Sequence record: NZ_CP031419.1
From: a plasmid
Strand: one strand, 5' to 3'
Length of the DNA: 64,000 bases
Numbering within the stretch: the first letter of the stretch is position 1; each line of letters opens with the position of its first letter. A program made the translations under genes and the position numbers. Positions 12,194 to 26,606 of this stretch are shown here, piece after piece. Below the pieces are notes generated by a model. That model was not told where the DNA came from. It worked only from the letters and a program-made list of their open reading frames with translations, and searched no databases.

Positions 12194-12289
12194 CGTCGCT
12201 TCTTCTCTCTCGCGGTGGCGGGGTGTCGAAGTGTCGAATCAGGGCGATTCGCTTGCTAAGCTTGGCGATGCCCTTCTTTTGCGAGTGGG

Positions 12290-12330
12290 GCACTTTCGGG
12301 CGGCCTGGCGTGTCCGAGCTGCGGTCTTCG
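12290..12330 (-). promoter_or_regulatory. leader box copy G (TGCGAGTGGG + GTGTCCG loop region)
   Basis: shares CCCCACTCGCA box (coding orientation) with copies A-F. Confidence 0.4.
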
Positions 12331-12364
12331 CGACCGAGGCTTCGCCGGCCGCCCGAGCCATGTC

Positions 12365-13096
12365 CTAGGAGCCCTCCAGGAACGCCGTGAGCGCCGCTGC
12401 GGCGGCGATGCTGGGTTCGGGCTCCCCGGCGTGCGGCCAGTCCTCCACGTGCAAGCTCAGGTCATCCCAGAGCTTTCGGGCTTCGGCGATCAGCACGGCC
12501 CGGTCGATACCGGTGCGGCCGTTCACCCACTCGGCCAAGTTCGGGCAATAGTGCTCCCCGGCCCAACCCTCGGCGATGGCCCTGGCCTCGTACGCGGTGA
12601 TCACGGTGTCGAAGCTGCCGTCGGTGTAGATGCGCTGGGCGACCGCTTCGTAGACGCTGGGCACCGTTTCAGTGGTTTGCCAGACACGCACCTCGGTGGT
12701 GAAGGTCAGCACGTCACCGGGCATCTCCTCGTCGCGACGGTCGAGCCAGAACGGTGCCACCTCGGCTCTGGGGACACTGGTCAGGCTTTCGCGGTCGATG
12801 CACTTGTTGCCGTACATGCCGGAGGTGCCGGTGTAGTCGATGCTCCCATCGGGATCGAGAATGAAGCCGTAATCGGGGTCGTCCCCGCAGGCGAACAACT
12901 CGCCGCTGTAGGCAGTGACCCACAAACGGGAGCGGTACCCGCCGGGGTGAACGAGGATATCGCCGGTCCAGGGGCTGGTGGGCCCGGCCGCACGGGCCAC
13001 GACGCCGCGGCGAGCGCGGGCCTCATCGGCGGTGGTCCAGCGGGAGCGGTCGAACATCGTGAATGGCATCGGAGGAAGTCCTTCCGGAGAAGTCAT
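12365..13096 (-). CDS. hypothetical protein downstream of the Dcm methyltransferase
   Basis: C-terminal ~240 aa of track ORF 12365..14440 is protein-like; starts at 13096 or 13069 (in-frame ATGs); N-terminal remainder of the track ORF is antisense artefact. Confidence 0.5.
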   Translation of the reverse strand: MTSPEGLPPMPFTMFDRSRWTTADEARARRGVVARAAGPTSPWTGDILVHPGGYRSRLWVTAYSGELFACGDDPDYGFILDPDGSIDYTGTSGMYGNKCIDRESLTSVPRAEVAPFWLDRRDEEMPGDVLTFTTEVRVWQTTETVPSVYEAVAQRIYTDGSFDTVITAYEARAIAEGWAGEHYCPNLAEWVNGRTGIDRAVLIAEARKLWDDLSLHVEDWPHAGEPEPSIAAAAALTAFLEGS

Positions 13097-13194
13097 GGGG
13101 GCCAGGGGTTTCAATCGCGGATGGGGTTGCGGGAGTGGACGAGAAAGGAAGGGCCAGGGAGGGGGCCCGGTGTGCGGGCCCCCTCCCTGGTGGA

Positions 13195-14874
13195 TCACGC
13201 CGCCGGGGTGTAGCGGTCGAGCTCTTCGCCGGTGATGGCCTCCACCAGCGCAGAGATCAAAATCTCGGCAGCGGGCGGGGTGACGGCGTTGCCGAGCTGG
13301 CGCACCCGTTGGCGCTTGTTGCCGAGCACGATGTAGTCCTTGCGGAACGCCATCGCGTCCTGGATCTCGTGCGGCTCCAACATGCGGAACCGAGTGTTCT
13401 CGATGTCGCGCTCGGTGATCATGTCGACCAGAGCGAACCGGTCGCGGGTGCTGACCGTGCCCAGCGGTTCGGTGGCGGGCCGGGCGGTGCCGGTGCTGTA
13501 GTAGGGCAGCAGCAGCGTGTTCCACAGCTCGGGCGACATCCCGGCGGGCGGCGTGACCAGGCCGTGGTGATTGCCGCTGGCGGTGACGGTGGCCAGGGCC
13601 TCGGTCACCGGACGCGCGTCCGAGGAACCGCCGCGCAGCTCGGCGACGAAGGGGAGGAACGCCACCGCCGTCTCGTTGCGGGTGGTCTGGGTGCGCAGCG
13701 GCATCGAGGCCAGCTGGGCTTCCTTGCCGTCGCGACCCTCCATCGGAATCATCAGCGGCGGCGGCACGACCAGGCCGTGGTTGGAGCCGTCGGCAACGAC
13801 CGTGGCGAGGGGTTCGTTCAGCCCGATCGTGCGGGGGCGGTCCGAGCGCAGCAGCGCCAGGAACGGCTGCGGGATCGCGAGCCCGTCGTTCTCCCGGGTG
13901 GTGCGGGCGGCCATGGGCCCTGTGACCTGGGTGGCGTCGTCGCGCCAGGTTCCCCCGGCGGGGACCATCATCGGCATCATCGAGGCGTAGCGGCGCATCC
14001 CGACGCGAATGCGTTCCATGGTCTTGGGAGCCAGAGGCTTGTCCCGGTCGCCGATGCGGGTGCCCGGCAGGGTCCAGTCGATCGCGGCGGCCGCCGGGAG
14101 CGCGGGCGGCTCCACGATCGAGTTGCGGCAGCTGACGCGAGGGCAGCGGTACACGTACTGGGTGCGGTAGCGCCCCATGTCGGCATTGGGCTTCTTGAAG
14201 ACCTGGAGGGCGCTCACCCACTCGTCGCAGGCCAGGCAGTACGACAACGGGCGGAGCCACTTGTTCCAGTCGGGCTCGCGGCCGAGCTTGAGATCCCAGT
14301 AGGCGACGTAGAGCCGGTCCCGGGACTGCGGGGCCGCCGGAGTGCGAACCGGCTGGGCATGGCTGGAGTTGAGGGCGATGACCTTGACCCCGTAGCCCAG
14401 GGCCCGGATCTCGCCGATCCAGCGGTTCCACTGGTCCCACTGACGGACCTCGACCACGTTCTCCACGACCCCGGCGCGGACCCGGCCACCGCGCTCGATC
14501 ACGCCGCGCAGGTACATCGGGACCTCTTCCATCAGCGCCCTGCTGCGGTCGGCTTCCTCATCGCGCTGAAGGTCGAGGAGGTCACCTTGGAGGGTGTTGT
14601 CGTAGTCGCGCTTCTTGCCGCGCGCCGAGGACCACTGCGGGCACTCCGGCGAGGCCCAGAAGATATCGGCCACAGGCCATTTCACGATCTGTTCTTTGGC
14701 CTCTTCGGTGCTCAGGTCTCCGAGGAAGTGATCGGCCTCGGGGTAGTTGGTGGCATGGGTCTCGATGGCCTTCGACCAGTGGTTCGCCGCGCGGGTGACG
14801 CGCACACCGGGCACCTTCGATGCGCCCTGAGTGGAGCCGCCAGCGCCGCAGAACCAATCCATCAATTCGAGCAT
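13195..14874 (-). CDS. DNA (cytosine-5)-methyltransferase with enlarged, internally repeated target-recognition region (multispecific-type)
   Basis: motif I 'FCGAGG', PC-like 'SPECPQWS', ENV 'VVENVVEV', motif IX/X 'RMLEPHEIQDAMAFRKDY…QLGNAV'; three repeats 'EPLATVVADGSNHGLVVPP / EALATVTASGNHHGLVTPP / EPLGTVSTRDRFALV'. Confidence 0.85.
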   Translation of the reverse strand: MLELMDWFCGAGGSTQGASKVPGVRVTRAANHWSKAIETHATNYPEADHFLGDLSTEEAKEQIVKWPVADIFWASPECPQWSSARGKKRDYDNTLQGDLLDLQRDEEADRSRALMEEVPMYLRGVIERGGRVRAGVVENVVEVRQWDQWNRWIGEIRALGYGVKVIALNSSHAQPVRTPAAPQSRDRLYVAYWDLKLGREPDWNKWLRPLSYCLACDEWVSALQVFKKPNADMGRYRTQYVYRCPRVSCRNSIVEPPALPAAAAIDWTLPGTRIGDRDKPLAPKTMERIRVGMRRYASMMPMMVPAGGTWRDDATQVTGPMAARTTRENDGLAIPQPFLALLRSDRPRTIGLNEPLATVVADGSNHGLVVPPPLMIPMEGRDGKEAQLASMPLRTQTTRNETAVAFLPFVAELRGGSSDARPVTEALATVTASGNHHGLVTPPAGMSPELWNTLLLPYYSTGTARPATEPLGTVSTRDRFALVDMITERDIENTRFRMLEPHEIQDAMAFRKDYIVLGNKRQRVRQLGNAVTPPAAEILISALVEAITGEELDRYTPAA

Positions 14875-14895
14875 GGGAATCGTCCCTTCGTGATT

Positions 14896-14978
14896 TGCGA
14901 GTGGGTCGAAGAAGGCGGGGTGTCCGGTCCCGCTTCCTTCTATGTCATATATTACCCGTTAAAGTTGATCGAGGTCAA
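14896..14978 (-). promoter_or_regulatory. promoter-leader cassette A: -35 TTGACC, 18 nt, -10 TAATAT, stem-loop (loop GTGTCCGGT), box CCCACTCGCA, RBS, start of Dcm gene
   Basis: read on minus strand; near-identical cassettes at 21807-21888 and 26524-26606. Confidence 0.6.
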
Positions 14979-15082
14979 GAACTTTCTTGACGTGTCTTTT
15001 ATCGAAATTATCTGTGCGGCAACAGCTTTCGATTCTCCTGCCGACCTGGGGATCGGGGCCGCAAACGCTACCGATACAATGG

Positions 15083-15097
15083 ATGTTTTAGATACAC
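15083..15097 (+). promoter_or_regulatory. TTTAGATACA motif copy 2 (ATGTTTTAGATACAC)
   Basis: identical 16-mer GGATGTTTTAGATACA also at 38979-38994; upstream of 15311 gene. Confidence 0.5.
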
Positions 15098-15310
15098 TGG
15101 AAGTGTTCGAAAAGTGCCCGCTCCCCGCGTTCGCCCACGTCAACGGAGCCGGAAGGGCTCGACAACGGCGTCGGGCCCAGCGGCGAACCCGCGAGCAGAC
15201 ACCGATCACACGAGAACCGCTGAGCGCTCGCGCGTCTCGGACCGGCCGCATACGTCGGAACGAGGTGGAAGACTTGCGGGCGAACGAGGCGTGGCCGACG
15301 CAACCGAACG

Positions 15311-16255
15311 ATGGAGCAGCCGATGACCGATGCCAGATCCGACCCCGCCGCACCCGAGGCGAGCCTCGGGGACCTCCAGGCCGAGGCGATCACCCTGCTC
15401 ACCCGCGTCTCGAGGATGCAGCGCTCCCGTCCGGCGGCGAACGGCGCTGCGGCCGCCCGCGCGACCGATCCGATCGACTTCGCCGAATTCGTCACCCAGG
15501 TGATGGCCGGAGTGGCCGCCAACCGGGGCGGCGTCGCCGTGCTGGCCGGTCGGCCCGGCAGCTGGGAGGCCGACAAACTGCGCGACATGCTCTACAGCAC
15601 CGTCGGCGAGGACGAATGGGCGCTGGCCGAGCACCGCACCGAACCCGTGGTGATCCCGCTCGCGATCGAGGAAGTCCTGATCGACGCCGGGGAGCCCGAG
15701 GAATACGAACCCGAGGACCGCGCCCAGGAGATCGTCCGGCGCGCCCAGACCGCCGGCCTCAGCGTGGACGAATGGCTGACCCGCTGGAACGGCCGCGAAC
15801 CGGTCTTCACCCGATGGCGGCCGTTGATGAAGCCCGAGGACCACTACGACGAGCAGGTCAACGCGGTCGAGAACCGCCACGACGATGCCTACACCGCCCT
15901 CGAGGCCCGCTACCCCGAGGACACCGACTACAGCGTCTACGCCGCCGAGGCCGAGCAGCTCGACGCGCAGCGTGACGCCGAACTCGCCGCGCTGCGGGAG
16001 CGGTGGCGTCGGCGCTACCAGCGCTACGCCACCGCATTCGAGGCGGCCGTGCGGGCCAAGGCCGACGAGCTCGGGGTGCGGGTACCGCTCGAAGTCCAGG
16101 TCGAGACGGACCCGGACCGAACCTGGGACGCCCGCCAGAACATCGCTCCCGGCTGGGCCGACGCCGACCGGCTCGCCGTCCGCCTGTACGAGCACGCCCG
16201 CGAAGTCACCCCCACCGCCCTTCTGACCACCGACGAGCCCGACACCGAAGGCTGA
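15311..16255 (+). CDS. hypothetical acidic protein
   Basis: 314-aa ORF, protein-like composition; start may be second ATG at 15323. Confidence 0.55.
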   Translation: MEQPMTDARSDPAAPEASLGDLQAEAITLLTRVSRMQRSRPAANGAAAARATDPIDFAEFVTQVMAGVAANRGGVAVLAGRPGSWEADKLRDMLYSTVGEDEWALAEHRTEPVVIPLAIEEVLIDAGEPEEYEPEDRAQEIVRRAQTAGLSVDEWLTRWNGREPVFTRWRPLMKPEDHYDEQVNAVENRHDDAYTALEARYPEDTDYSVYAAEAEQLDAQRDAELAALRERWRRRYQRYATAFEAAVRAKADELGVRVPLEVQVETDPDRTWDARQNIAPGWADADRLAVRLYEHAREVTPTALLTTDEPDTEG

Positions 16256-16261
16256 GGCCCC

Positions 16262-16579
16262 ATGACCGCCGAGAGCGCCCCCAAAACCCCACCGGCACAG
16301 CGGGTTCTGACCGTCGGGCAGATCCGCGAAGCCCTTGCACAGTTCCCCGACGATCTCCCGCTGATGGTGTGCGTTCCCGTCGACGACGACACCTACGAAA
16401 GCTACGGAGTCACGATGGGCCCCTACCACCAGCGGGCTGACTGGGGCGACGGGCTCGGCCCGGTCGCTGACGAACGCTACGTCGCCATCGACGCCATGGC
16501 GTACTTCCTTGCTCTGCGAGAGGAGCTGGAGATCACCTCCGCCGACTCGGTCGCATCCGAGCAGGAGGCCGGACTGTGA
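16262..16579 (+). CDS. hypothetical protein
   Basis: 105-aa ORF 7 nt after previous stop. Confidence 0.45.
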   Translation: MTAESAPKTPPAQRVLTVGQIREALAQFPDDLPLMVCVPVDDDTYESYGVTMGPYHQRADWGDGLGPVADERYVAIDAMAYFLALREELEITSADSVASEQEAGL

Positions 16580-17019
16580 GCACACCCCGGAACCCGTCGA
16601 GTCGCGAAACCGCCACCACCGGAAGGGAACTCGTCAAGTACGAGCCCTACCTTGAGCTCGTCTCGCGGCTGTGGTTCGCGGCGGCCGTGAACCCGAACCG
16701 CCTCGCCGAGAAGATCGCGAGAACGACCCGCTTGAGCCGCAGCAGCTCGGTCATTTTCGTCGACGAACCGGTGACCTGGGAGACGCTGCCGCAGCGGCTC
16801 GCCGAGCGCCGACGCGACTACGCCGGGTACTTCGCGTCCCTGCCCCCGGTGGAGGCCGCCGCCTCTCGGCGGGGCTTGCTCCAGCGGCCCACGCCGGAGA
16901 TGGAGGCTACCGTCGCGGAGGCCGCCGCGCGGGTCTTCGCGCGGAGACAACAACCCGGCCCGGCTCAAAAATCCCAGCGCGCCAACGACACCCACGCATC
17001 CGAGGGGGAACACCGATGA
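16576..17019 (+). CDS. hypothetical protein
   Basis: GTGA/ATGA-type overlap with neighbours. Confidence 0.45.
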   Translation: MSTPRNPSSRETATTGRELVKYEPYLELVSRLWFAAAVNPNRLAEKIARTTRLSRSSSVIFVDEPVTWETLPQRLAERRRDYAGYFASLPPVEAAASRRGLLQRPTPEMEATVAEAAARVFARRQQPGPAQKSQRANDTHASEGEHR

Positions 17020-17267
17020 AGGATCTCACCGCGACCGACCGACGCTTGGGCGAGGCCCTGGCCCAGCGTGACGAGGCGGCCCTGTCCAAGGTGGCCGACG
17101 AATTCGCCGCCGCCGGGCTGCCCGCCATGGCGCAGCTGTTGCGCGACCGCGGGACCGCAGGCGCAGCAGGGTTGCTGTCGGGGTTGACCGGGTGGTCGGT
17201 TCCGTCGGCGCACGGAGTCCGCCATCACCGTCACGGTGACGTAACTCCCGAGGGTCGTAGGTCGTGA
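17016..17267 (+). CDS. hypothetical protein
   Basis: ATGA overlap with upstream gene; 83 aa. Confidence 0.35.
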   Translation: MKDLTATDRRLGEALAQRDEAALSKVADEFAAAGLPAMAQLLRDRGTAGAAGLLSGLTGWSVPSAHGVRHHRHGDVTPEGRRS

Positions 17268-17527
17268 CGGAGTCATGGCACTGTGAAGCGTACGGACCCG
17301 AAGGTGTCGAAGTCGGGGCCCGGTGTTTCGTCGCGGGCGAGCTGCACGAGCGGGTCTGCACCGATCCGGGCGTGTGTCACCGGACGATGGTGGCAGAACG
17401 CCAGAGGGTTTTCCGGCGGATGAACGAGTTGGCCGCCGGTGGGTCGCCGTGGGCGGCCGACTTGGCGCAGGAGTTCGCCAGCCCCGAGCGGATTCTCGGC
17501 GGCACGGACGAAGACCCCAGTTCCTGA
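17264..17527 (+). CDS. hypothetical Cys-containing small protein
   Basis: GTGA overlap; 87 aa. Confidence 0.35.
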   Translation: MTESWHCEAYGPEGVEVGARCFVAGELHERVCTDPGVCHRTMVAERQRVFRRMNELAAGGSPWAADLAQEFASPERILGGTDEDPSS

Positions 17528-17786: not shown

Positions 17787-17800
17787 TTTAGATACATTAG
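17787..17800 (+). promoter_or_regulatory. TTTAGATACATTAG motif copy 3
   Basis: ~100 nt upstream of 17897 start. Confidence 0.5.
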
Positions 17801-17896
17801 AATAAATGGGCATGGCGGGAGCGCGATACCCGCGTCCACCAGCGGCGAACGCCGCCGGAGGAGATGACCCAGAGCGACGGGGGAGAGGGGAAACCG

Positions 17897-18796
17897 ATGA
17901 CCAAGGCAAACGACCCGGCGGTAGCGGCGGACGCGGAAGGCTGGCGGCTCGATCCGGTGCGCCTGGACTGGGATACGGTCCTCCTCCGCGATCCCGCATA
18001 CCGTGATCCTGCCGAACTGCTGTTCGCGGGCAAAACGATGGGGATCGGCGGAATTGCCGCTCTGGTCGGCGTACCCGTCACCGCCTTCCTGGCCCTGCTG
18101 ACGGACTGGGCCTCGTGGTGGTGGTGCATTCTCGCCGCAGGCATCCTTATCGTATCCGGGCTGTCGACCGCAGCGATCGGAGCGGCCTTGGATCAGCGGC
18201 AGATGGAGAAGGCCACGCTGACCGGGGCAAGGCTGAAGGTATTGCCGCCGGCCCTCTGCCGTCCGCTGGCCCGCGCGATTCTTGCCATCGAGGACATCAA
18301 GTCCGGCCGGGCATTTCGCGAGAAGTATCTGGGCGAGCTGGAGCTGAGCGCAACGGCCTGGCAGATGGCGCAAACAGCGCTGCGCGGAGGAGAACTGGTG
18401 GCGGCGCGGACCGAGCTGCTCGACGCCGAAGAAGGAGTCATCTCGCCCGCCGACCGTGTTGCGGCCGAAGCCGCGCAGCGGACGGTCGACGAGCTGGTCG
18501 AGGGCCTGGAGCGTGACGCCGAAGCCCTGGCCACCGCAGCGGCATCGGCCCGGACGCTGTCAACGGCGCTGGAGGACACGGAGGCGCGCGCACTGGCGGA
18601 AACCGAGCGGGAACGAATCTCCCGCCAGCAGCTCGCGCGCCGACACCGGCTCGACGCGGCGCTCGCTGCGGTCCGCACCGCCGACGAGGCCAATTCCCCT
18701 GACACCGCAGATCTCGCGGTCGCCCGCGCCGCCGCCTACGCCGAAGTCATGCAGCTCGGTGGGACACCTACCCCCGGCCTGGTACAGCCGGACTGA
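17897..18796 (+). CDS. membrane protein (two predicted TM helices) with long coiled-coil-like tail
   Basis: hydrophobic segments 'GIGGIAALVGVPVTAFLALL' and 'WWWCILAAGILIVSGLSTAAIGAAL'; RBS GGGGAGAGGGG before ATG 17897 (track start 17864). Confidence 0.55.
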   Translation: MTKANDPAVAADAEGWRLDPVRLDWDTVLLRDPAYRDPAELLFAGKTMGIGGIAALVGVPVTAFLALLTDWASWWWCILAAGILIVSGLSTAAIGAALDQRQMEKATLTGARLKVLPPALCRPLARAILAIEDIKSGRAFREKYLGELELSATAWQMAQTALRGGELVAARTELLDAEEGVISPADRVAAEAAQRTVDELVEGLERDAEALATAAASARTLSTALEDTEARALAETERERISRQQLARRHRLDAALAAVRTADEANSPDTADLAVARAAAYAEVMQLGGTPTPGLVQPD

Positions 18797-18816
18797 CGCT
18801 CAGGAACCCCACCGGT

Positions 18817-19011
18817 TCAGGCCGCGGTAATCTCGAACAGGGTCAGCGCCGCGCTGTTAGCGTGTTGTTCGGCACGCTCCTTCACAGCACAGGTTGGGCC
18901 GATCCCCGCGCTCACCGAAGCCGCCGAAAGCAGCCAGCCGTGGCAGCGGCGGCAGTGCACGACGAGCCGCACCGTCGGCTGTTCCTGGTCATCGGTCTCG
19001 GTCGCGGCCAT
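18817..19011 (-). CDS. small zinc-ribbon protein (CxxC…C)
   Basis: GGAGGAGAG RBS 7 nt before ATG 19011; 'VHCRRCHGW…GIGPTCAV'. Confidence 0.45.
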   Translation of the reverse strand: MAATETDDQEQPTVRLVVHCRRCHGWLLSAASVSAGIGPTCAVKERAEQHANSAALTLFEITAA

Positions 19012-19150
19012 GTTCGATCTCTCCTCCGGCCGGGTGGGTCTCTCCCAGGGTGACACAAGTGACCGACAACTCCGGCACGGTAGGGACGGCAAGGTTTTGG
19101 GTCGTTCCGTCCCGCAGAGCATGGGGCAGCCGGGCCCGACTTAAGGGAGG

Positions 19151-19747
19151 TCAGACCGGCAGGGGGTCGATGCGGTCGGCGGCGTAGTGGTAGAGCCGCC
19201 AGACCGATTTCGAGAGCAGCTCCCGGTCGGCGCAGCACACGGTCGCCAGGGCCGGACGGCCGTCCTTGGTGGTGGGGTAGCGGCCCTGGTCGCCGTTGCG
19301 GTCGTGGCGTTCGAGGTCGCGGACGAAGGCAACGATGTCGCGCTCGGTCTCCCCAGTGCCGAGCAGCGGATCACCGGCCGCGGCGAGGGCGTCGAGGAAT
19401 GCGGTGAGAACGTGGCTCGACCTCAGCGCGGGGATGCCGGAGTAGGCCGGATACAGCGCCTTGAGCGACAACTCGGCGAGCTGACGCGACAGGAAGAACG
19501 CCGGCTGCGCGGCCCCGGCGTCGATGGCGGCTTGGGCGGCCGAGGCGAATTCGAACAGCGTCGTCGAGGGCGCGTTGATCGGATGCTCGCGGGACATGCA
19601 GAGCACGTCGTCTCGGCTGTCGTGGTCGACCGTGGGGTCGCCGAACGGACTGATGTAGGCCACGGACGGGAATTCTGCTCCCCGATCCGGGGCGGGGGAA
19701 GCGGTTTTCGCGGCCCGTGCTGAGGCGGTCCGCGCCGTCTCCGGCAC
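19151..19747 (-). CDS. hypothetical protein
   Basis: 198-aa ORF with protein-like composition. Confidence 0.5.
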   Translation of the reverse strand: MPETARTASARAAKTASPAPDRGAEFPSVAYISPFGDPTVDHDSRDDVLCMSREHPINAPSTTLFEFASAAQAAIDAGAAQPAFFLSRQLAELSLKALYPAYSGIPALRSSHVLTAFLDALAAAGDPLLGTGETERDIVAFVRDLERHDRNGDQGRYPTTKDGRPALATVCCADRELLSKSVWRLYHYAADRIDPLPV

Positions 19748-19760
19748 GCGGCCGTGCTTG

Positions 19761-20075
19761 TCAGAGATCGAACCGGACGGCGAGCACCATCTTGATGAAG
19801 TCGAGCATCTCGGTAGTCACCGTCCCGTCGTAGGTTCCGGCCTCGAGTACCGCTCGCACGCAGGGAATGAACCGGTGTACGGCGAGCACGCGGCCCTCGT
19901 CCCAGCCCACCGAGAAGATTCGCAGGTCTTGCGGCATCTCCCGGGCGTCGACGACCGGCACCGCCAGCGCCACATCACGATGGCGCAGCAACGCCTGGCC
20001 GTCGACGATCACCACGGTCAGATAGCCGTCACCGGCGGCGATGGTGTAGATGTCGCCCTGGTGCAGTTCCCTCAC
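19761..20075 (-). CDS. MazF/PemK-family-like type II toxin
   Basis: 104 aa; 'GDIYTI…', 'VALAVPVV' and C-terminal 'DGTVTTEMLDFIKMVLAV' align with MazF/PemK blocks; 4-nt overlap with upstream antitoxin. Confidence 0.55.
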   Translation of the reverse strand: MRELHQGDIYTIAAGDGYLTVVIVDGQALLRHRDVALAVPVVDAREMPQDLRIFSVGWDEGRVLAVHRFIPCVRAVLEAGTYDGTVTTEMLDFIKMVLAVRFDL

Positions 20076-20281
20076 AGGGACATGCCCATGCCGATGCGCA
20101 GCAAGTCGGCATCGCTGTACTTCGGCGGGTTCTGTTGCTCGTGCGCGGCGATGCGCCGCAACTCCTTGTCCGCGAGCCGCTGGAGCACGGCCCGGTTGAT
20201 CTCGGCACTGACGTTGCCCTCCGCGCTCTCGCGCAGAGCCTGGGCCGTCGCGTCCGGGAGGCTGATGTTCAGTTTCGCCAT
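20072..20281 (-). CDS. ribbon-helix-helix (CopG/ParD-type) antitoxin
   Basis: 69 aa, 'MAKLNISLPDATAQALRE…' typical RHH N-terminus. Confidence 0.55.
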   Translation of the reverse strand: MAKLNISLPDATAQALRESAEGNVSAEINRAVLQRLADKELRRIAAHEQQNPPKYSDADLLRIGMGMSL

Positions 20282-20285
20282 GCCA

Positions 20286-20314
20286 CCACGGTAAAGCGTG
20301 TCGCTTTACCGTGG
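20286..20314. promoter_or_regulatory. 13-bp perfect inverted repeat CCACGGTAAAGCG-TGT-CGCTTTACCGTGG abutting the antitoxin start (candidate TA operator)
   Basis: IR ends 5 nt before the antitoxin ATG and overlaps its RBS. Confidence 0.45.
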
Positions 20315-20333
20315 CAAGCGGGCGGGCCGTCGA

Positions 20334-21038
20334 TCAGAGCGGGAACAGCGACGGTTGGGCGTTGGCATTGCCAGTCCAGGACAAAACGTTGGGGAGGTTC
20401 GCGTCCGGGGCGAAGGTGAGGTAGGTCCCATCGACACTGTCGCAGCCGATCGCAGTCGCGTAGTCATAGCGGCGGCGCGAGTTCACCCGGCCCATATGGA
20501 CCCACTTGCCGAGGCTCGAGGCGACCGCGGCGAGGTTCGCCGCCGCCGGGCCGAGCTTCCAGGCGGTGTCCCCGGCGAGGAACAGACAGTCAATCTCGTC
20601 CCACGGGTCCCAGGTGTCGAACTCCATGAAATTCTGGGCCGCGAAGGCGACGGGAAACCCGAGATCGCGGATGCGCCGCAGCATCGGCAGAGAGCGGGCG
20701 AGCGTGGCGAAGTGGTCGCCGACAACGTCGGGCGCCACCACGAACAGACAGCGGTCGGCGTGCGGGCGCAGCCGGCCGAGCCAGTTCAGGTAGGCGTCGT
20801 CACCGGGATAGGCCCCGCCGAACACCCCGTTGTCGGCACACCACAGCGGGTAGTCAGCGCTCAGGCGGTTGCCTTGAGCGGGAGTCATGATCGCGCCCAG
20901 TTCCTCGGCGCGGATTCGGTCGCGGATCGCGGGTGTGCTGGGTGGGGTGAGGTAGAGCGGAGCGCCAGGAGTGCAGTCGTGCCAGCGCTCGGCCGCCCAG
21001 CTCTCATTAAAACGTTCGTTTTGGTTATCGGCAGGCAT
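20334..21038 (-). CDS. hypothetical protein
   Basis: 234-aa ORF, 'LWCADNGVFGGAYPGDDAYLNWL' core; no family assigned. Confidence 0.55.
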   Translation of the reverse strand: MPADNQNERFNESWAAERWHDCTPGAPLYLTPPSTPAIRDRIRAEELGAIMTPAQGNRLSADYPLWCADNGVFGGAYPGDDAYLNWLGRLRPHADRCLFVVAPDVVGDHFATLARSLPMLRRIRDLGFPVAFAAQNFMEFDTWDPWDEIDCLFLAGDTAWKLGPAAANLAAVASSLGKWVHMGRVNSRRRYDYATAIGCDSVDGTYLTFAPDANLPNVLSWTGNANAQPSLFPL

Positions 21039-21137
21039 GGATGCTTCCCTCCCACTGTGGCGGGGTGCGGTCGGAGACGGGAGAAGAAGGGCGGCGGACG
21101 AAGACCCCGGACCGCCGCCCCGCTCCCGATGGGAGGA

Positions 21138-21785
21138 CTAGAAGGTGAGTGTGAACCGCAGCGCGGCGCGGTACTCCTCGAACTCGACATCGAGGATCTT
21201 GCCGGTGAACTTCTCCCAGTTGCCCACAACGACGAAGTGCCGTTCGGCCAGCTGGCGCGTGGCTTCCTCGGTCGTGTCGACTGGAGTGGCTGGCGGGTCG
21301 AGCGGGACAAAGGTGCCCATCGGGTGGTCCTCGTAGTCGAAGACCTCGACCGTGCCGCCCGGGGACCAGGTCGCGCGCACCGTGATCACGCCCCGGAACT
21401 CGGCCTCCATGGCCCTGACGATTTCGGTCAGCTGATCGGCTGCGGTGAACAGCGCGGTCGCGCGCTCGTGCAGATCCGGGCGGTTACCAGCGAACAAGCG
21501 ATCCATGTACGCGCGGGCGGTATCGGTGTAGGTGTTGACGGTGTCGCCCAGGACAGCGAGCACGCCGTCGCCCTCGGCGCCTCCGTGGAAGTGGCCGACG
21601 GCGGCCGCCGCCGCGAGCGCGCGAACGGTCAGGTCGGCGGCGCAATCGACGAACCCGTCGGCGTCCTGGACCGCCAACTCCTGCGCGACCTCGGTCAGGA
21701 ACCGCACGACCTTGCTGGTCTCGGTCGCGGGCCGGGTGTCCTCGGTGGCGGGGCGCAGCGGGAACGGGTTGCTGATGATCTCCAT
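21138..21785 (-). CDS. hypothetical protein
   Basis: start ATG 21785 (MEIISNPF) with GAAGGGA RBS; preceded by cassette B. Confidence 0.55.
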   Translation of the reverse strand: MEIISNPFPLRPATEDTRPATETSKVVRFLTEVAQELAVQDADGFVDCAADLTVRALAAAAAVGHFHGGAEGDGVLAVLGDTVNTYTDTARAYMDRLFAGNRPDLHERATALFTAADQLTEIVRAMEAEFRGVITVRATWSPGGTVEVFDYEDHPMGTFVPLDPPATPVDTTEEATRQLAERHFVVVGNWEKFTGKILDVEFEEYRAALRFTLTF

Positions 21786-21806
21786 GATCGGGAGTCCCTT
21801 CAAGGT

Positions 21807-21888
21807 GTGCGAGTGGGGGATGAAGGGGCGGGGTGTCCGGTCCCGCCGCCTTCTGTGTCATATATTACCCGTTATCTGGAATGAGTCA
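21807..21888 (-). promoter_or_regulatory. promoter-leader cassette B (-35 TTGACT, 16 nt, -10 TAATAT, stem-loop, CCCCCACTCGCA box)
   Basis: see cassette A. Confidence 0.6.
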
Positions 21889-21922
21889 AGTCTTCCCGCG
21901 TATGTGTGGTGTGTGTCGCCGG

Positions 21923-23197
21923 TCAGGCCGATATTGGGAACAGCGCCAGGTCGGTGCCGGTGGCCTGCGCCCACCAGTCGGCGAATCCTGGCCGTTCCTT
22001 GTCGGCGACGACGGCGGGGGCGACGACGAAGAAGTGCTCCAGCTCGTGCGGGCTCGTGCCGTCCCGGCCGGGGACGACCGCGCGGGCGATGCCGTCGTCC
22101 CCGAGCTCGCGGCGGGTGTCGACGAGCGCCGGGGAGCCGTCGGGCCCGCCGATATCGACCCGCAGCGGAGCGCCGTCGAGCCAGGCGGCCATCTCTTCGC
22201 GAGAACCGACGTCGACCGACCGCACCGATCGCGCGACCATCTTGGCCCCGCCGGTTTGGGTGCGCCGGGCGAGGCGGCGGACCTCGTAGAGGGCGTGAGG
22301 TTGTTCGGCGAGCGCACTCTCGAAGGCGGCCAGGACGCCGGTGAGTCCGGCCGCGCGCACGTAGTCGATGGCGCGCTTGCCGCCGACGAGGCCCTGTTTG
22401 GCGTTGAGCGCGAGTGCGGTGTGCTCCATCAGCAGCATCCGCGCCCCGGCGTCTGGGAACGCCGCGTAGCGCGCCAGGGTGGCGACTCGATTGGCAGCGG
22501 TGACCAGCGCGAAGGGACAGAACACGCACGCCGACTTCTGCCATGCTCGGCCGGTCTTCTCCCGGATGTAGGCCAGCACCTGTTCCCGGTCCCAGCCCCA
22601 GGAGATCAGTGGGTACTCACCACGCCGCAGCGCGGTGTCGTATCCGGCGTCGCGGCGGGCCCGCGTCAGCTCGCCTGCCTCGAATCCGACGACGTGCCGG
22701 TACGGCCGTCCGTGTGTAATCGCGGCGATCACCGGGTCGAGCACTTCGCCCTTGGCCGACATGCTGCACCGACGACTGCCACCGACCTGCGGCTGAGTGC
22801 CGGCCGTGAGCATCTCGGTGCCGAGGGTGTAGGCGCCCTCGATATAGAGGCGGTGCGGCGATCGGGAGTCGTCGAAGACGATGACGCCGGTGCCATCAGC
22901 GCGCACCCGGCGGTCGGCCCGCCCGACCTGGATGAACCGAATCCGGTGCTGGGCCAGTAGCGGGAGCACGACCTCGGCCACGTCCCGTGCGGTGTCTTCC
23001 CATTCGTCGCCCACCATGGCGGTGACGACGGCCAGCTCCGCCAGGTCGAAGTCGCGGCTGTCGGGGTCGAAGATCCAGCGCAGCAGCAGGGCGGTGCTGT
23101 CGGCCCCAAGTCCATAGGACAGCACGACTCGGGGCGCGGGTTCGTGCGCGGCGAGCTGCTCCCGCAGTGCCGCGGGCACAGCGGGCCCGGTCACCGG
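21923..23197 (-). CDS. PAPS-reductase-like (PP-loop ATP-pyrophosphatase fold; DndC/IbrA-like) protein
   Basis: 'VVLSYGLGADSTALLLRW' PP-loop-like motif; GTG start 23197; upstream part of the track ORF is low-complexity. Confidence 0.55.
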   Translation of the reverse strand, partial: PVTGPAVPAALREQLAAHEPAPRVVLSYGLGADSTALLLRWIFDPDSRDFDLAELAVVTAMVGDEWEDTARDVAEVVLPLLAQHRIRFIQVGRADRRVRADGTGVIVFDDSRSPHRLYIEGAYTLGTEMLTAGTQPQVGGSRRCSMSAKGEVLDPVIAAITHGRPYRHVVGFEAGELTRARRDAGYDTALRRGEYPLISWGWDREQVLAYIREKTGRAWQKSACVFCPFALVTAANRVATLARYAAFPDAGARMLLMEHTALALNAKQGLVGGKRAIDYVRAAGLTGVLAAFESALAEQPHALYEVRRLARRTQTGGAKMVARSVRSVDVGSREEMAAWLDGAPLRVDIGGPDGSPALVDTRRELGDDGIARAVVPGRDGTSPHELEHFFVVAPAVVADKERPGFADWWAQATGTDLALFPISA

Positions 23198-23502
23198 TTC
23201 GCCCGATCGCGGACGCGCAGGGCCACCCCGCCCGAGCCCGGCGGGCAGGTGCAGCCCGCCGCGTGCAGCTCGTCGGTGATGCGCCGCCAGGCGCGGTAGT
23301 GCCGTAGTCCGCCCTCGACGGCCACCGCACCGGCGAGGAACATCAGGCTGGAGATGATCGCGGGGAACTCCGACGACACTGCGCCGAGGGCGTACATCGA
23401 GCCCCCGGTCAGCCAGCCGGTGGCCACAACGGCGTGTGCCTGGGCGAGCCAACTCTGGTCGTGCTGTTCGTCATGACGTCGGTCGTGCTGGAAGTTGTTC
23501 AC
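23191..23502 (-). CDS. small membrane protein
   Basis: GTG 23502 with GGAGGAG RBS 7 nt upstream; 'MYALGAVSSEFPAIISSLMFLAGAVAV' TM segment; leader box copy E (23522-23534) just upstream. Confidence 0.5.
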   Translation of the reverse strand: MNNFQHDRRHDEQHDQSWLAQAHAVVATGWLTGGSMYALGAVSSEFPAIISSLMFLAGAVAVEGGLRHYRAWRRITDELHAAGCTCPPGSGGVALRVRDRANR

Positions 23503-23521
23503 GGGAAAACTCCTCCGGGAA

Positions 23522-23534
23522 TGCGCGAGTGGGG
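23522..23534 (-). promoter_or_regulatory. leader box copy E (TGCGCGAGTGGGG)
   Basis: immediately 5' of RBS of 23191..23502. Confidence 0.4.
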
Positions 23535-23549
23535 ATGGGCGGATGGCGG

Positions 23550-24167
23550 TCAGCGCGCCGTGTCCGGTTCGGCGTCGGTGCCGCCCGCGACGAGAGAGCG
23601 CGGGCGAAAGTCGCGCGCGAACCGGTCGGTGAGCTGCGCCAGCAGCGCGAGCAATTGGTCGCGGGGAACGTCGACCGACTGGAAGGACCCGCCGAAGCGC
23701 ACCGCGTCGGCGTCCGGGGCGATGGTGAGCCGTTCCCGGCCGTCGCCGAGGTCGGTGACCTCGAGCCGGTCGCCGTCGGCGTCTTCGAAGACGGTGTGCG
23801 GCATGACGCGGATGCTGTCGGGCAGGCCCGCCGGGCGGACGCCGTGGCGCAGCAGGGCGACGGTCTCGGGCGTCAGCGCGCTCGCGGTGCGCAGCCGGAG
23901 TTCGAGTTCGCCGTCGTCGCTGTAGGCGATCAGCCGCCCGTCGAGGTCGTAGAAGTCGAGCCAGAGCCCGAACTCGTCGGCGCGGTCGGTGGCCGCGCCG
24001 ACGGCCAGCCCGTTGGCCAGCAGCCCGCGAATGATCCAGCCGGTCGGCCCGAGCGGGGTCACCTGGGCGGAGTCGACGCTGTAGCGGTCGATGAGGTCGA
24101 GCTCGTCGCGGAACGGGGTGTCCAGCACCGAGGACCACGCCCGCGCGTCCTGGTCTTTGCGCGACAT
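23550..24167 (-). CDS. hypothetical protein
   Basis: ATG 24167 overlapping stop of upstream gene by 1 nt; 205 aa. Confidence 0.5.
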   Translation of the reverse strand: MSRKDQDARAWSSVLDTPFRDELDLIDRYSVDSAQVTPLGPTGWIIRGLLANGLAVGAATDRADEFGLWLDFYDLDGRLIAYSDDGELELRLRTASALTPETVALLRHGVRPAGLPDSIRVMPHTVFEDADGDRLEVTDLGDGRERLTIAPDADAVRFGGSFQSVDVPRDQLLALLAQLTDRFARDFRPRSLVAGGTDAEPDTAR

Positions 24168-24826
24168 CACGCCCGCCCCTCGTCGGTCAGCGAGGCCCAC
24201 CAGCCGTCGACGAGGCCGTGCGCTGTCCAGTCCGCGAGCTGGGCGTGCGCGCAATCGCGGTGTGCGACCACCGCCGCGGCGCGCTCGATCGGGTAGCAGT
24301 GCGAATGCGTCGAGCAGCCCTGAGTCCAACCGGGTACGTCCTCGTCGAGCACGATGACGTTCGTAGGGACCAAGCCGTCGGAGGTGAGCGGGCCGAGCAG
24401 AGTGGCTTCCCGGTCCGGGTCGCCGAGCGCGGCGGCGGGCAGCATCGCGAAATCCCAGCGCCGGGAAGAGGACAGGACTGCGACGCGGACCGGATCGTGC
24501 AGCAGCGCGGCGGCGGCCTGCACGGCGGCCACGGCGGTGTAGCCGTAGCAGAAGATCTCGAGCGGGGTGCCGTCGAGACGGGAGTAGACCGAGGCGCACC
24601 ACTCGGTGCTAGCGGCGATTTCGTCCGCGCCGAGCGCCAGGCCGTCGCCGTTGCACACGAGCATCTCCAGCGGGATGCCCCGGACTTCGCCGACGGGAAT
24701 GTAGATGTTCACGTGGCCGACGACGCGGACCTGCGCGTCGTAACCGAGTTCGGTCAGCGCGGTCAACTCAGGTGCGTAGCGCACCTGTGCCTCGGCGACG
24801 AGAGCGTCGAATTTGGTGGAGGGCAT
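24167..24826 (-). CDS. hypothetical protein
   Basis: 219-aa ORF preceded by leader copy C. Confidence 0.5.
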   Translation of the reverse strand: MPSTKFDALVAEAQVRYAPELTALTELGYDAQVRVVGHVNIYIPVGEVRGIPLEMLVCNGDGLALGADEIAASTEWCASVYSRLDGTPLEIFCYGYTAVAAVQAAAALLHDPVRVAVLSSSRRWDFAMLPAAALGDPDREATLLGPLTSDGLVPTNVIVLDEDVPGWTQGCSTHSHCYPIERAAAVVAHRDCAHAQLADWTAHGLVDGWWASLTDEGRA

Positions 24827-24849
24827 TGCCCTGCTCCCTTCGGGGGATT

Positions 24850-24895
24850 TGCGAGTGGGGATCGAAGGGGGCGGGGTGTCCGGTCCCGCCCGGCT
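24850..24895 (-). promoter_or_regulatory. leader copy C (TGCGAGTGGGG + stem-loop GGGGGCGGGGTGTCCGGTCCCGCCC; no -10/-35)
   Basis: sequence identity with cassettes A/B/D leader. Confidence 0.5.
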
Positions 24896-24915
24896 TCGGT
24901 GTTGCTCAGGTGGTG

Positions 24916-25572
24916 TCAGTGGCGCTCGCGCGGTTCTGCGGTGGCGAGCAGTTCGAGCAGGGCTTCGATGTCGCTAGAGCCCGCGAGGCGGGCGGCGAGG
25001 GGTGTCCGCATGCGGGTGATTACGGCGTGCAGCGTGCCGCGCGGACCATCGGACACTGGATGCCGGTCGCCGGTGCGCGGGTCCACGAGCTCGCCGGTGA
25101 CCTGGATGTCGATCAACGGGTTCCGGCGGAACACCAGGAAGCAGCGCGTGGTGACGTAGTCGAATTCGATGTCGGCTCCGAACGCAAGGGCCGGTTCGGG
25201 GGCGTCGCGGACGATGACCTCGAAGTAGCGGTAGCCAGAGAAGATCGCGGTGAACGGTGCGGTGCACACGGTGACGCTGAGCCATTGCCGGGTGCCCGCG
25301 TGCCAGGCGGTGTAGGGGCCGGTGCGGGTGAGATCGGTCAGGGTCTCCACGAACGCCGCGTGACGCGCCTCGTAGTCCGGCGTCCGCCACCATGCGCGGC
25401 TGTCGCCCCGATGGAACCGGGCGATACAGAACAACACGGTCCCGCTGACGAGCAAGCCCGCGACGTCGAGCCAAGCGCGCCGTTGCACCGCCGTGTACAG
25501 GCTGGAGCCGATCGCGGCGGCCGCCACGAACATGGTCAGGGGGAACAGCTTGTTGAGAATCTTGCGGATCAC
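24916..25572 (-). CDS. membrane protein (two N-terminal TM helices)
   Basis: 'LTMFVAAAAIGSSLYTAV…LLVSGTVLFCIARF'; GTG 25572 (GAAAGG RBS) or internal ATG. Confidence 0.45.
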   Translation of the reverse strand: MIRKILNKLFPLTMFVAAAAIGSSLYTAVQRRAWLDVAGLLVSGTVLFCIARFHRGDSRAWWRTPDYEARHAAFVETLTDLTRTGPYTAWHAGTRQWLSVTVCTAPFTAIFSGYRYFEVIVRDAPEPALAFGADIEFDYVTTRCFLVFRRNPLIDIQVTGELVDPRTGDRHPVSDGPRGTLHAVITRMRTPLAARLAGSSDIEALLELLATAEPRERH

Positions 25573-25622
25573 GATCGAAACCTTTCGTCGATAGGAAAAG
25601 GAGGGAGGGAGCCGGGCGCGGC

Positions 25623-26006
25623 TCAGCCGTTGACCCACTCGATCGGCACTTCCACGCCCCAGAAGCGGCGGTGGAGCAGCCGCCGGGCGTTCTCGGCGTC
25701 GGTCAGCCGTCCGTCGCGGCGGCGGAAGTGGACGATCGGGCAGCCCTCGATCGAGGGCCAGAAGGTGCCGTCGGCGTGCCGGATTCCGGACTGGATCAGG
25801 GCGTACGCCTCGCGGCCGGAGCCACCCGAGTTGCACGCGGTCACCCGGACGACGGGCACCCCGGCGGCGATCCGCGCGTCGCGCTCGGCGACGGCCTCGG
25901 CGGTGTCGAAGTACTCGGGGTCGTGATTAGAGGCGTAGAGAGCGGCGCGGATCTGCTCGGCGGTGCACTGCACGTTCAGCTGTCCGGCCGCGGCGGTGGA
26001 GGGCAT
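25623..26006 (-). CDS. hypothetical protein
   Basis: ATG 26006 with AAGGAG RBS; leader copy F upstream. Confidence 0.5.
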   Translation of the reverse strand: MPSTAAAGQLNVQCTAEQIRAALYASNHDPEYFDTAEAVAERDARIAAGVPVVRVTACNSGGSGREAYALIQSGIRHADGTFWPSIEGCPIVHFRRRDGRLTDAENARRLLHRRFWGVEVPIEWVNG

Positions 26007-26023
26007 GAGGTGCTCCTTCGGCG

Positions 26024-26068
26024 ATGGCGAGTGGGGGAGCGACGGGCGGAAGTGTCCGGTTTCCGCCC
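26024..26068 (-). promoter_or_regulatory. leader copy F (GGCGAGTGGGGG + stem GGGCGGAA-GTGTCCGGT-TTCCGCCC)
   Basis: same loop GTGTCCGGT as other copies. Confidence 0.5.
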
Positions 26069-26092
26069 CGTCGCTTCGGGTGACGGAAAGGG

Positions 26093-26503
26093 TCAGAAGG
26101 GTGCTTCGTCGTCGCCCCACGGGGCGCTTGAGTCACCGCGCCCGTCGGCGGGCTCGTCGTCCTCGTCGTCGGGGTTCCAGTCGTCGGGGACGCCGTCGGC
26201 CCACACCACTGCCTTGGCGTTGTGGTCCCAGGTGACGTTGGCGAGGGCCTGCACGTTCTCCAGCGAGGCGTCGTCTTCGACGCGAACGCCCGCCGGGATG
26301 TGCCACAGGTCGCCCCGGAAGTCCCAGGCCGACCCGCTGCGCTGGGCCGAGGAGCTGACTTCCTCGGCCGCCCAGGCGCGGGCGTCGGCCTCGGTGACGA
26401 ATTCCTTCTCGTCGAGGGAGCGTCGCTCGGACGCGGGCGGGACGTCGGAGAAGACGACGTAGAAGCGATCGTGGTCCGCGACCACTGCTGCCAGAGGACT
26501 CAT
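26093..26503 (-). CDS. hypothetical acidic protein
   Basis: 136 aa, D/E-rich C-terminus; preceded by cassette D. Confidence 0.5.
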   Translation of the reverse strand: MSPLAAVVADHDRFYVVFSDVPPASERRSLDEKEFVTEADARAWAAEEVSSSAQRSGSAWDFRGDLWHIPAGVRVEDDASLENVQALANVTWDHNAKAVVWADGVPDDWNPDDEDDEPADGRGDSSAPWGDDEAPF

Positions 26504-26523
26504 GGGAATGCCCTTTCGTAGGG

Positions 26524-26606
26524 TGCGAGTGGGGTCGAAGAAGGCGGGGTGTCCGGTCCCGCTTCCTTCTATGTCATATATTACCCGATATATCGGCGAA
26601 GGCCAA
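26524..26606 (-). promoter_or_regulatory. promoter-leader cassette D (-35 TTGGCC, 17 nt, -10 TAATAT, stem-loop, CCCCACTCGCA box)
   Basis: see cassette A. Confidence 0.6.

Follow-up and report, generated by a model that had tools for sequence, protein, structure and literature searches.

A reiterated hairpin-and-box leader, with and without a promoter, precedes oriT-proximal genes of a Nocardia plasmid family

We analysed a 64,000-nucleotide stretch of the plasmid record NZ_CP031419.1 (the window), in which a short leader element, a stem-loop followed by a conserved box of 9-11 bases, is repeated in front of leftward genes. An initial annotation made from the sequence had described three near-identical cassettes, each with a promoter and a leader, and four further copies consisting of the leader alone; all seven were recovered where it had placed them, and all lie on the minus strand. 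A cassette comprises, in order, the hexamer TTGACN or TTGGCC, a spacer of 17-18 nt, cGGGTAATAT, ATGACAY, and an imperfect GC-rich hairpin with the loop ACCGGACAC. The hairpin is followed by a 2-5 nt spacer, the box (C)CCCACTCGCA, 8-11 nt, a GAAGGGA-type Shine-Dalgarno sequence (SD) and ATG. The copies are as follows.

26524-26606, minus: cassette P1; -35 TTGGCC at 26601-26606, -10 TAATAT at 26578-26583, conserved ATGACAT, hairpin 26537-26570, loop ACCGGACAC 26549-26557, box CCCCACTCGCA 26524-26534, then the SD and ATG (26501-26503) of gene A
26026-26074, minus: leader-only copy between genes A and B; hairpin 26039-26074 with a different stem (GCGACGGGGCGGAA / TTCCGCCCGTCGC), identical loop 26052-26060, box CCCACTCGCC 26026-26035; gene B ATG 26004-26006
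24850-24898, minus: leader-only copy between genes C and D; hairpin 24863-24898, loop 24876-24884, box 24850-24860; gene D ATG 24824-24826
23524-23588, minus: leader-only copy over the 3' end of gene E, ahead of gene F; extended hairpin 23539-23588, loop 23560-23568, box CCCACTCGCG 23524-23533; gene F GTG 23500-23502
21808-21889, minus: cassette P2; -35 TTGACT 21884-21889, -10 TAATAT 21862-21867, hairpin 21822-21853, loop 21833-21841, box 21808-21818, then gene H ATG 21783-21785
14896-14978, minus: cassette P3; -35 TTGACC 14973-14978, -10 TAATAT 14949-14954, hairpin 14908-14941, loop 14920-14928, box CCCACTCGCA 14896-14905, then ATG 14872-14874 of a C5 DNA methyltransferase gene
12280-12356, minus: variant leader (the 12290 copy); branched hairpin 12296-12356, CUCGGACAC (12310-12318) on the 3' side of the loop, box CCCACTCGCA 12280-12289

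The pattern CGGACAC-N8-35-CCACTCG matched seven times in the window against an expectation of 0.10, and none of 100 shuffles gave as many; the matches were all on the minus strand, at 12.28-26.56 kb. The nonamer ACCGGACAC by itself gave six matches where 1.05 were expected. A repeat search returned the three cassettes of about 80 nt as its top and largest family and also recovered a fourth copy of the hairpin. The -35 hexamer TTGACN, noted earlier for all three cassettes, is present in those beginning at 21889 and 14978, the only two of the three promoters flagged by a consensus promoter scan; the 26606 cassette has TTGGCC instead. The loop and box had been quoted as though from one strand, and they were not: the loop, GTGTCCGGT, is a plus-strand reading, and the box, CCCCACTCGCA, a minus-strand (gene-sense) reading. 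The loop, said to be always the same, is so in six of the seven copies, the 12290 copy being the exception. This last copy likewise departs from the general position ahead of a ribosome-binding site and start: an SD-like AAGGG follows its box without a nearby start codon, and the next gene begins about 85 nt on, at 12193. The variant is kept in three related loci (L001, L002 and L103). In the leader ahead of gene F, the loop encodes ..EPDT.. of gene E, and the covariance model described below scores this copy weakly, at 17 bits.

The leftward genes form three operons with one cassette at the head of each.

21923-26503, minus: P1 operon; genes A 26093-26503, B 25623-26006, C 24916-25572, D 24167-24826, E 23550-24170, F 23191-23502 and G 21923-23194
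18817-21785, minus: P2 operon; genes H 21138-21785, I 20334-21038, J 20072-20281, K 19761-20075, L 19151-19747 (weak HEPN match) and a DUF6011 gene 18817-19122
11690-14874, minus: P3 operon; C5 cytosine DNA methyltransferase gene 13195-14874, gene O 12365-13069 and a helix-turn-helix (HTH) gene 11690-12193
13154-13190, minus: terminator-like hairpin directly after the methyltransferase gene, inside the P3 operon

The leader-only copies precede genes B, D and F and the HTH gene, and genes that overlap their upstream neighbor have no leader. Searches of Pfam, NCBIfam, PHROGs and PDB sequences gave almost no matches for the cargo genes beyond the few named here. The product of gene G is PAPS-reductase-like (phrog_424), genes A-F match no family, gene I matches an actinophage family of unknown function (phrog_15826, E 6e-70), and the last gene of the P3 operon encodes a MerR/excisionase-like HTH protein. 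A role of the cargo in DNA modification or anti-restriction is suggested by the phrog_15826 and phrog_424 proteins of these adjacent operons, taken with the C5 methyltransferase. The methyltransferase is an orphan one, and plasmid leading regions are enriched in genes of this class (PMC11541004). The hairpin at 13154-13190 is strong, with a 16-bp GC-rich stem (CCAGGGAGGGGGCCCG...CGGGCCCCCTCCCTGG) and a weak T tail only, and a second terminator-like hairpin inside the operons follows gene H at 21085-21130. Neither belongs to the leader family: loop and box are missing both from the degenerate hairpin at 21085-21130, which lies upstream of gene I, and from the one at 13151-13189.

Structure prediction and a covariation analysis, both proposed with the initial annotation, bore out the hairpin. 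On RNA folding, the ACCGGACAC nonamer is exposed in a 9-nt terminal hairpin loop in six of the seven window copies, and the commonest copy folds far more stably as RNA (-15.9 kcal/mol) than as DNA (-7.2 kcal/mol, DNA z = -1.0), a point in favor of RNA over DNA. For comparison, 29 copies were collected by regular expression, 21 of them distinct canonical copies that entered the model alignment. Standard pairs occupy 85.6% of the stem cells of these 21 copies, versus 45-59% when the partner columns are slid. Eight of the 12 stem pairs have changed on both sides, in 31 cells, and the covariation score was reached by 0 of 500 shuffles; compensatory changes include GCGGAA/UUCCGC to ACGGAA/UUCCGU and GCGGG/CCCGC to UCGGG/CCCGA. 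The loop and the box are the fixed parts. GGACAC is the only part of the loop invariant across all 29 copies, the full loop CCGGACAC is fixed in all but one of the 21 distinct canonical copies, and the box core, CCACUCGC(A) / CCACTCGC, is fixed in every aligned copy. This constancy extends to promoter-less orthologous copies in species that share only 70-80% identity in the flanking genes. Loop and box thus stay constant while stems, spacers and neighboring coding DNA diverge, which argues for sequence-specific selection.

The element is also held at fixed distances on either side. The promoter-bearing copies of six species share the block cGGGTAATAT(A/C)TGACA(T/C)(A/G)GA at one and the same distance from the hairpin, and the spacing from the -10 to the hairpin (TAATAT-ATGACAT-AGAAGG) is fixed in 11 distinct cassettes from 6 species. 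With a transcript start at the usual 6-8 nt after the -10, the hairpin would form the very 5' end of the mRNA. Each of the 29 copies has the orientation of the gene that follows it. The box, placed earlier at 20-25 nt before the ribosome-binding site, in fact ends 4-11 nt before the SD; in 25 of the 29 copies the distance from its end to the start codon is 16-24 nt. The loop-to-box offset varies between 20 and 33 bp and shows no helical phasing. In many copies UCCC stands just before AUG and is able to pair with GGGA of the SD.

A covariance model was built from nine copies and comprises the 12-bp stem, the loop and the box. A scan of 185,579 species genomes for the loop-plus-box pattern gave at least 120 loci, nearly all single chance matches; among the matches listed, the model gave scores of 39-73 bits only in Nocardia, and other taxa reached at most 26 bits. 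Conservation in related elements was found as the initial annotation had asked, in four Nocardia plasmids and in six other Nocardia species. Beyond the plasmids, the Nocardia copies among the matches listed are in N. neocaledoniensis, N. amamiensis, N. salmonicida and N. tenerifensis (3 copies), and a Nocardia metagenome-assembled genome (L013) contains four canonical copies plus a 12290-type variant by regular expression. The 41 loci from a pattern scan of IMG/VR all scored 20 bits or less with the covariance model, so that no true copy is found there, and none of eight loci from a metagenome scan is true. Rfam 15 gave no match at the gathering threshold for the whole window, and only chance matches, with E up to 5, for 11.5-28.3 kb. 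No analogous repeated cassette was found on Rhodococcus erythropolis plas4, which carries the nearest non-Nocardia relative of the relaxase (50% identity). On a complete 142.5-kb N. cyriacigeorgica plasmid there are six copies, all within about 22 kb on the side of the origin of transfer (oriT) away from the relaxase, and the remaining 93.5 kb has none. Within these searches, the element is confined to one Nocardia plasmid lineage.

Judged by its sequence, the plasmid that carries the locus is conjugative, of type MOBP, and belongs to the pNF1 family of Nocardia. Megablast gave 92-96% identity to four large MOBP-typed Nocardia plasmids, namely N. farcinica pNF1 and two others, plus one N. cyriacigeorgica plasmid (L001). 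Megablast and blastn against 50,697 phage records gave no match. A phage origin was therefore rejected, there being no match in the phage collection, no true copy in IMG/VR, and a MOBP plasmid instead. The mobilization features lie immediately to the right of the leftward genes.

27671-28189: candidate oriT region, intergenic, about 520 bp, with three inverted repeats
27980-28110: inverted-repeat cluster of the candidate oriT, between the leftward genes and the NikA-like gene; repeats CCCAAAACCCCGGGGTTTTGGG; AGACACACTCGAA-GTGA-TTCGAGTGTGTCT; CCTCCAGA-GGA-TCTGGAGG
28190-28609, plus: NikA/MobC-like gene
28606-30237, plus: MobA/VirD2-type relaxase gene

All leader copies are located across the candidate oriT from the NikA-like and relaxase genes, and the genes behind them read away from it. 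An actinobacterial type IV secretion system cluster is present elsewhere on the related N. cyriacigeorgica plasmid. If transfer runs in the presumed direction, the leader-bearing side is probably the oriT-proximal, leading or 'establishment' region that enters the recipient first. As a separate observation, one arm in the candidate oriT, ACACACTCGAA, has CACTCG in common with the leader box, which may be chance.

Gene blocks that vary between related plasmids end at leaders. Genes B-C (24891-25995) are absent from L001 and pNF1, and the junction falls inside a hybrid leader whose hairpin is of the 26024 type and whose post-box part is of the 24850 type, placing the crossover in or next to the box. 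N. tenerifensis has the P1 cassette directly ahead of a C-like gene; genes F-G are absent, and E abuts the P2 cassette. In another related locus (L085), the modules that are present or absent likewise end at leader or cassette positions. The variable blocks bounded by leaders, together with the hybrid leader, suggest that the repeated module is also a recombination joint. The joint could work through short homology or through something site-specific. Open reading frames (ORFs) at 7127-9357, about 3-5 kb from the leader region, match genes of L001 and L002 annotated as recombinase or site-specific integrase. In L001, an 8.9-kb insertion (18714-27621) with a TerC gene and three adjacent genes, two annotated as site-specific integrases and one hypothetical, splits the PAPS-reductase-like gene at a site matching window positions 22516-22520.

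The genes behind the module most likely form a co-regulated plasmid-establishment set, under a mode of action that we propose here from sequence features. The initial annotation had suggested a cis-RNA element or a binding site for a translational or antitermination regulator. Its structural side stands, the element being structured, sense-oriented, covarying and adjacent to the ribosome-binding site; as to function, we infer a role from these same properties. The covarying stem, the invariant loop and box, and the position at the ribosome-binding site together make such a cis-RNA element or protein site the leading reading. Specifically, we put at roughly one half the probability that the element is a cis-regulatory mRNA leader, acting at the RNA level, of an oriT-proximal 'establishment' gene set that includes the C5 methyltransferase and the PAPS-reductase-like gene. 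Three near-consensus sigma-A-type promoters (TTGACN, 17-18 nt, cGGGTAATAT) would start transcripts a few bases before the hairpin, giving a primary mRNA with a 5'-terminal stem-loop, and the promoter-less copies between cistrons would tag or shield the segments that follow. In the RNA, the invariant loop (A)CCGGACAC would be displayed by a stem of whatever sequence, with the single-stranded box CCACUCGCA 1-9 nt past the stem and 4-11 nt ahead of the SD. Loop and box could then be recognised together, as a shared operator, by a trans-acting factor, probably one encoded by the plasmid, that would set ribosome access and/or mRNA stability for each leader-bearing gene. Once transferred, the genes would then be expressed strongly, in concert and possibly only for a time, and the repeated module would incidentally provide a recombination joint at which gene modules are swapped. 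A trans-acting antisense RNA was also considered as the partner, from an anti-box at 31137 and an anti-loop at 31245, 108 nt apart on the minus strand within the 30234-31967 gene. This pair was rejected as chance, since neither is conserved in the Nocardia metagenome-assembled genome, which keeps the leaders.

Several points weigh against a leader acting as RNA. Several genes of the same operons have no leader, and no candidate RNA-binding protein was found in the Pfam, NCBIfam, PHROGs and PDB sequence searches of the cargo. Covariation was measured on an alignment that had been fitted to the covariance model, and many of its copies are close relatives. Wobble pairs in the stem are about equally often G-U (17 cells) and A-C (19 cells) and are thus uninformative as to which strand folds, so that an assignment of the strand from them was rejected. 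The 23522-type copy of L001 has a weakened stem with the loop and box kept, and recognition of the sequence alone would also fit. Finally, the 12290-type copy keeps the loop, the box and AAGGG without a start codon, which indicates that the element is not strictly tied to starts.

Other explanations divide the same evidence differently. Processive antitermination in the style of lambda nut, HK022 put or pLS20 conAn would have the nascent hairpin and box modify RNA polymerase, directly or via a factor, to read through the terminators inside the operons, with the promoter-less copies as re-loading sites. The element does stand just past the promoter and again inside operons, terminator-like hairpins are present there (13154-13190 and 21085-21130), and the boxB-boxA order of rrn leaders resembles the hairpin-then-box arrangement. 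However, antitermination would not require the tight 16-24 nt spacing to the start codon, up to four copies per operon would be unusual, no Rfam antitermination RNA matched, and no NusG-, N- or Q-like gene was found among the scanned window proteins; we consider it unlikely. The signal might instead be read in single-stranded DNA (ssDNA), with each copy a priming site (as RSF1010 ssiA/ssiB or G4-type ssi), a roadblock to conversion, or a site-specific recombination joint on the T-strand, which, if transfer proceeds leftward from 27.7-28.2 kb, has the same sense as the mRNAs. This would account for the restriction of all copies to a single strand and to the region near oriT, and the RSF1010 ssi layout is a hairpin with the start site a few nt 3' of it. 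The plasmid moreover encodes a 583-aa protein (33313-35064, minus) with weak, below-threshold Pfam matches to Toprim (typical of primases) and DUF2742, along with a clear internal glutaredoxin domain (Pfam E 2e-15). The ssDNA promoter of the F plasmid is a conversion roadblock (bioRxiv 10.64898/2026.01.09.698686). The crossover in or next to the leader box at the B-C junction and the L085 modules ending at leaders or cassettes would fit as well. A T-strand signal leaves unexplained the fixed spacing to the SD or start codon and to the -10 box, the commonest copy is weak as a DNA hairpin (-7.2 kcal/mol, z = -1.0), and the transfer direction is itself one that we infer. The box-side arm, which in relaxase or primase sites is the recognised part, varies in sequence here. 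Nor is the element Frpo-like: no inverted repeat spans the promoter at any of the three cassettes, and a Frpo-like ssDNA promoter was rejected on that ground. That the copies are priming sites, conversion roadblocks or recombination sites on the T-strand appears improbable. The same low probability applies to each copy being, instead of or besides an mRNA leader, an entry site on the incoming T-strand for complementary-strand priming or strand-specific recombination. Were this true, the leading region would be converted and expressed in gene-sized units, and two-site modules would be excised or exchanged, as in an integron-like cassette system within an actinobacterial conjugative plasmid.

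A double-stranded DNA operator for a plasmid repressor, like that of p576 Reg at EGeRS2 or phiC31 CIR, would keep the genes off in donors and give a burst after transfer, with the HTH gene (11690-12193) or the small gene at 20072-20281 as candidate repressor. In its favor, the conserved blocks fall at about +1 to +50 of three strong predicted promoters, a MerR/excisionase-like HTH gene ends the P3 operon, the plasmid has a second reiterated promoter-region motif in four copies (TAGATACATTAGA, described below), and p576 provides a precedent (PMC8708921). Yet the arms vary and covary around a fixed loop, the reverse of what a palindromic operator would show; the loop-to-box offset of 20-33 bp is unphased; and the four promoter-less copies are conserved across species. 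We judge such an operator very unlikely. Equally slight is the chance of a passively spread promoter-plus-untranslated-region module, in the manner of 'mobile promoters' or the T4 PeSL, with the hairpin a generic 5' stabiliser or insulator, the box an unstructured ribosome standby region, and no specific trans-acting partner. The module does sit at the boundaries of variable blocks, one leader is a hybrid, the domain searches found no partner protein, and a 5'-terminal hairpin is a known generic mRNA stabiliser. Against passive spread, loop and box remain invariant in promoter-less orthologous copies while stems, spacers and coding DNA (70-80% identity) diverge.

If the proposed mRNA leader is correct, the establishment regulon of a large plasmid family of Nocardia, a genus that includes human pathogens, would be defined from a cis motif alone, an approach already taken with p576 and pLS20. 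Some 16 genes without a known function would become candidate anti-restriction, anti-defence or establishment genes. A covarying RNA motif of about 50 nt, absent from Rfam and with two invariant single-stranded blocks, would offer a handle on an unknown RNA-binding regulator of actinobacteria, which to our knowledge lack Hfq, CsrA and ProQ. Genetic work in Nocardia and Rhodococcus might also use the promoter and 5' leader as a strong, portable expression module. Genes that read away from oriT contrast with the enterobacterial ssDNA-promoter solution and may show how early expression is timed on Gram-positive and actinobacterial plasmids.

Reiterated control sequences of this general kind have been described before, most closely in the establishment-gene regulatory sequences (EGeRS) of pLS20 and p576. 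On these plasmids, reiterated regulatory sequences upstream of several variable establishment operons give rapid, transient expression after transfer, and the transferred strand of pLS20 is the non-template strand (PMC8708921). By analogy, the Nocardia element would work most like the EGeRS concept, but with a distinct, compact RNA-type signal that is also found between cistrons. EGeRS1 and EGeRS2 (Val-Calvo et al. 2021, PMC8708921) share with it near-identical repeats upstream of several variable operons of mostly unknown genes, confinement to one plasmid sector, and a non-template T-strand, established for pLS20 and presumed here. EGeRS1 is directly upstream of the ribosome-binding site and predicted to fold, and EGeRS2 contains a strong sigma-A promoter. 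However, both occur on Bacillus plasmids, in another host phylum; EGeRS1 is GC-rich and 400-600 bp long with many inverted repeats and no promoter, whereas the Nocardia element has about 50 nt and one hairpin; and EGeRS2 depends on double-stranded operators for a ribbon-helix-helix repressor. The invariant loop and box, and the occurrence with and without a promoter and also between cistrons, set the Nocardia element apart. The dual heptamer operator flanking the promoter of p576 EGeRS2, TTATCCCnnTTATCCC, is absent from the window at up to two mismatches; a sequence resembling a strong promoter is there.

The initial annotation had likened the repeats to the start-associated sequences (SAS) of some actinophages, a framing that did not survive: the phage collection gave no match, IMG/VR no true copy, and the SAS consensus of Cluster K mycobacteriophages is absent. 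SAS and extended SAS (ESAS; Pope et al. 2011, PMC3203893) do resemble the leader as an asymmetric motif before many gene starts in one orientation, about half of the SAS having an imperfect inverted repeat of variable spacer ahead of them; their hosts too are Mycobacteriales, and they too lack an assigned function. SAS, GGGATAGGAGCCC (13 bp), includes the ribosome-binding site itself, however, and ESAS has conserved 17-bp arms around a variable spacer, unlike the varying arms and conserved loop seen here; they are also phage elements and not plasmid ones. At up to two mismatches, GGGATAGGAGCCC has one unrelated match in the window, 655(-), and none in 11-28 kb. Frpo and ssi of the F and ColIb-P9 leading regions are similar in being dispersed promoter repeats near oriT before establishment or anti-defence genes (PMC11541004, PMC8708921). 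In Frpo, a long hairpin recreates the -35 and -10 in its stem, whereas the predicted Nocardia promoter is an ordinary duplex spanned by no inverted repeat, and the Nocardia genes read away from the candidate oriT, which would imply a non-template T-strand given the presumed polarity.

The operators of CsrA/RsmA and of T4 RegA combine a GGA hairpin loop with a second, purine-rich site downstream at the SD, and through them one factor could control many cistrons post-transcriptionally. The leader has the same arrangement, with GGA in the loop CCGGACAC and an SD (GAAGGGA, GGAGG or similar) 30-45 nt downstream; it differs from CsrA sites in its 9-mer loop with invariant CCGGACAC and in the extra C-rich box. 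In function, the proposed leader would be akin to the regulons of T4 RegA or CsrA. No CsrA or RegA homologue was found among the scanned window proteins, and we know of no CsrA in Actinobacteria. The promoter-early stem-loop (PeSL) cassettes of T4-type phages (Arbiol et al. 2010) reportedly combine a reiterated promoter and a stem-loop that flank variable small ORFs and act as a recombination joint by which modules are shuffled. These are phage elements of unrelated sequence, without a conserved loop plus box or promoter-less copies between cistrons, and the minicircle evidence has no counterpart for the Nocardia element. Identity with integron attC was rejected, as the core sites (RYYYAAC ... 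GTTRRRY) are not at the hairpin base; GTTRRRY occurs only twice in 15 kb of the sense strand and in none of the seven window leaders. An ANTAR target was rejected as well, since it needs two tandem hexaloop hairpins (A1, G4) and the leader is a single hairpin with a 9-nt loop. Genes for ANTAR-domain proteins (RNA-binding antiterminators) are nonetheless present on related Nocardia plasmids, for example at 1607-1975 of L168, and on pNF2-type plasmids the ANTAR gene adjoins a DUF6011 gene near an oriT-like region; there is none within the 64-kb window.

Other repeats were observed in the window. The second reiterated motif, TAGATACATTAGA, has three exact copies and one with a single mismatch, with 0 expected.

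17789-17801, plus: TAGATACATTAGA copy, ahead of the 17864 gene
27724-27736, minus: TAGATACATTAGA copy, ahead of the first oriT-proximal gene (27670)
35223-35235, minus: TAGATACATTAGA copy, ahead of the primase-like gene (35064)
38918-38930, plus: TAGATACATTAGA copy, ahead of the 39014 helicase operon

Each copy is sense-oriented just upstream of a separate operon, and the one at 27724 overlaps a predicted promoter, TTGACC-16-TACATT. TAGATACATTAGA appears to represent its own family of promoters or operators, serving backbone genes. The ORF at 39014-46348 (plus), of 2444 aa, has a methyltransferase domain together with SNF2/ResIII helicase domains and is annotated as 'helicase-related protein' in related plasmids. 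A further motif, AACTTCCCACACA, has six copies against 0.01 expected, and these flank parA/parB-like genes (5169-6799).

4351-4540, plus: AACTTCCCACACA copies
6812-6824, minus: AACTTCCCACACA copy
7009-7101, plus: AACTTCCCACACA copies

Two of the AACTTCCCACACA copies are inside 43-nt direct repeats that end in the palindrome GTAAACCGCGGTTTAC, and the AACTTCCCACACA repeats are probably centromere-like (parS) or iteron repeats.

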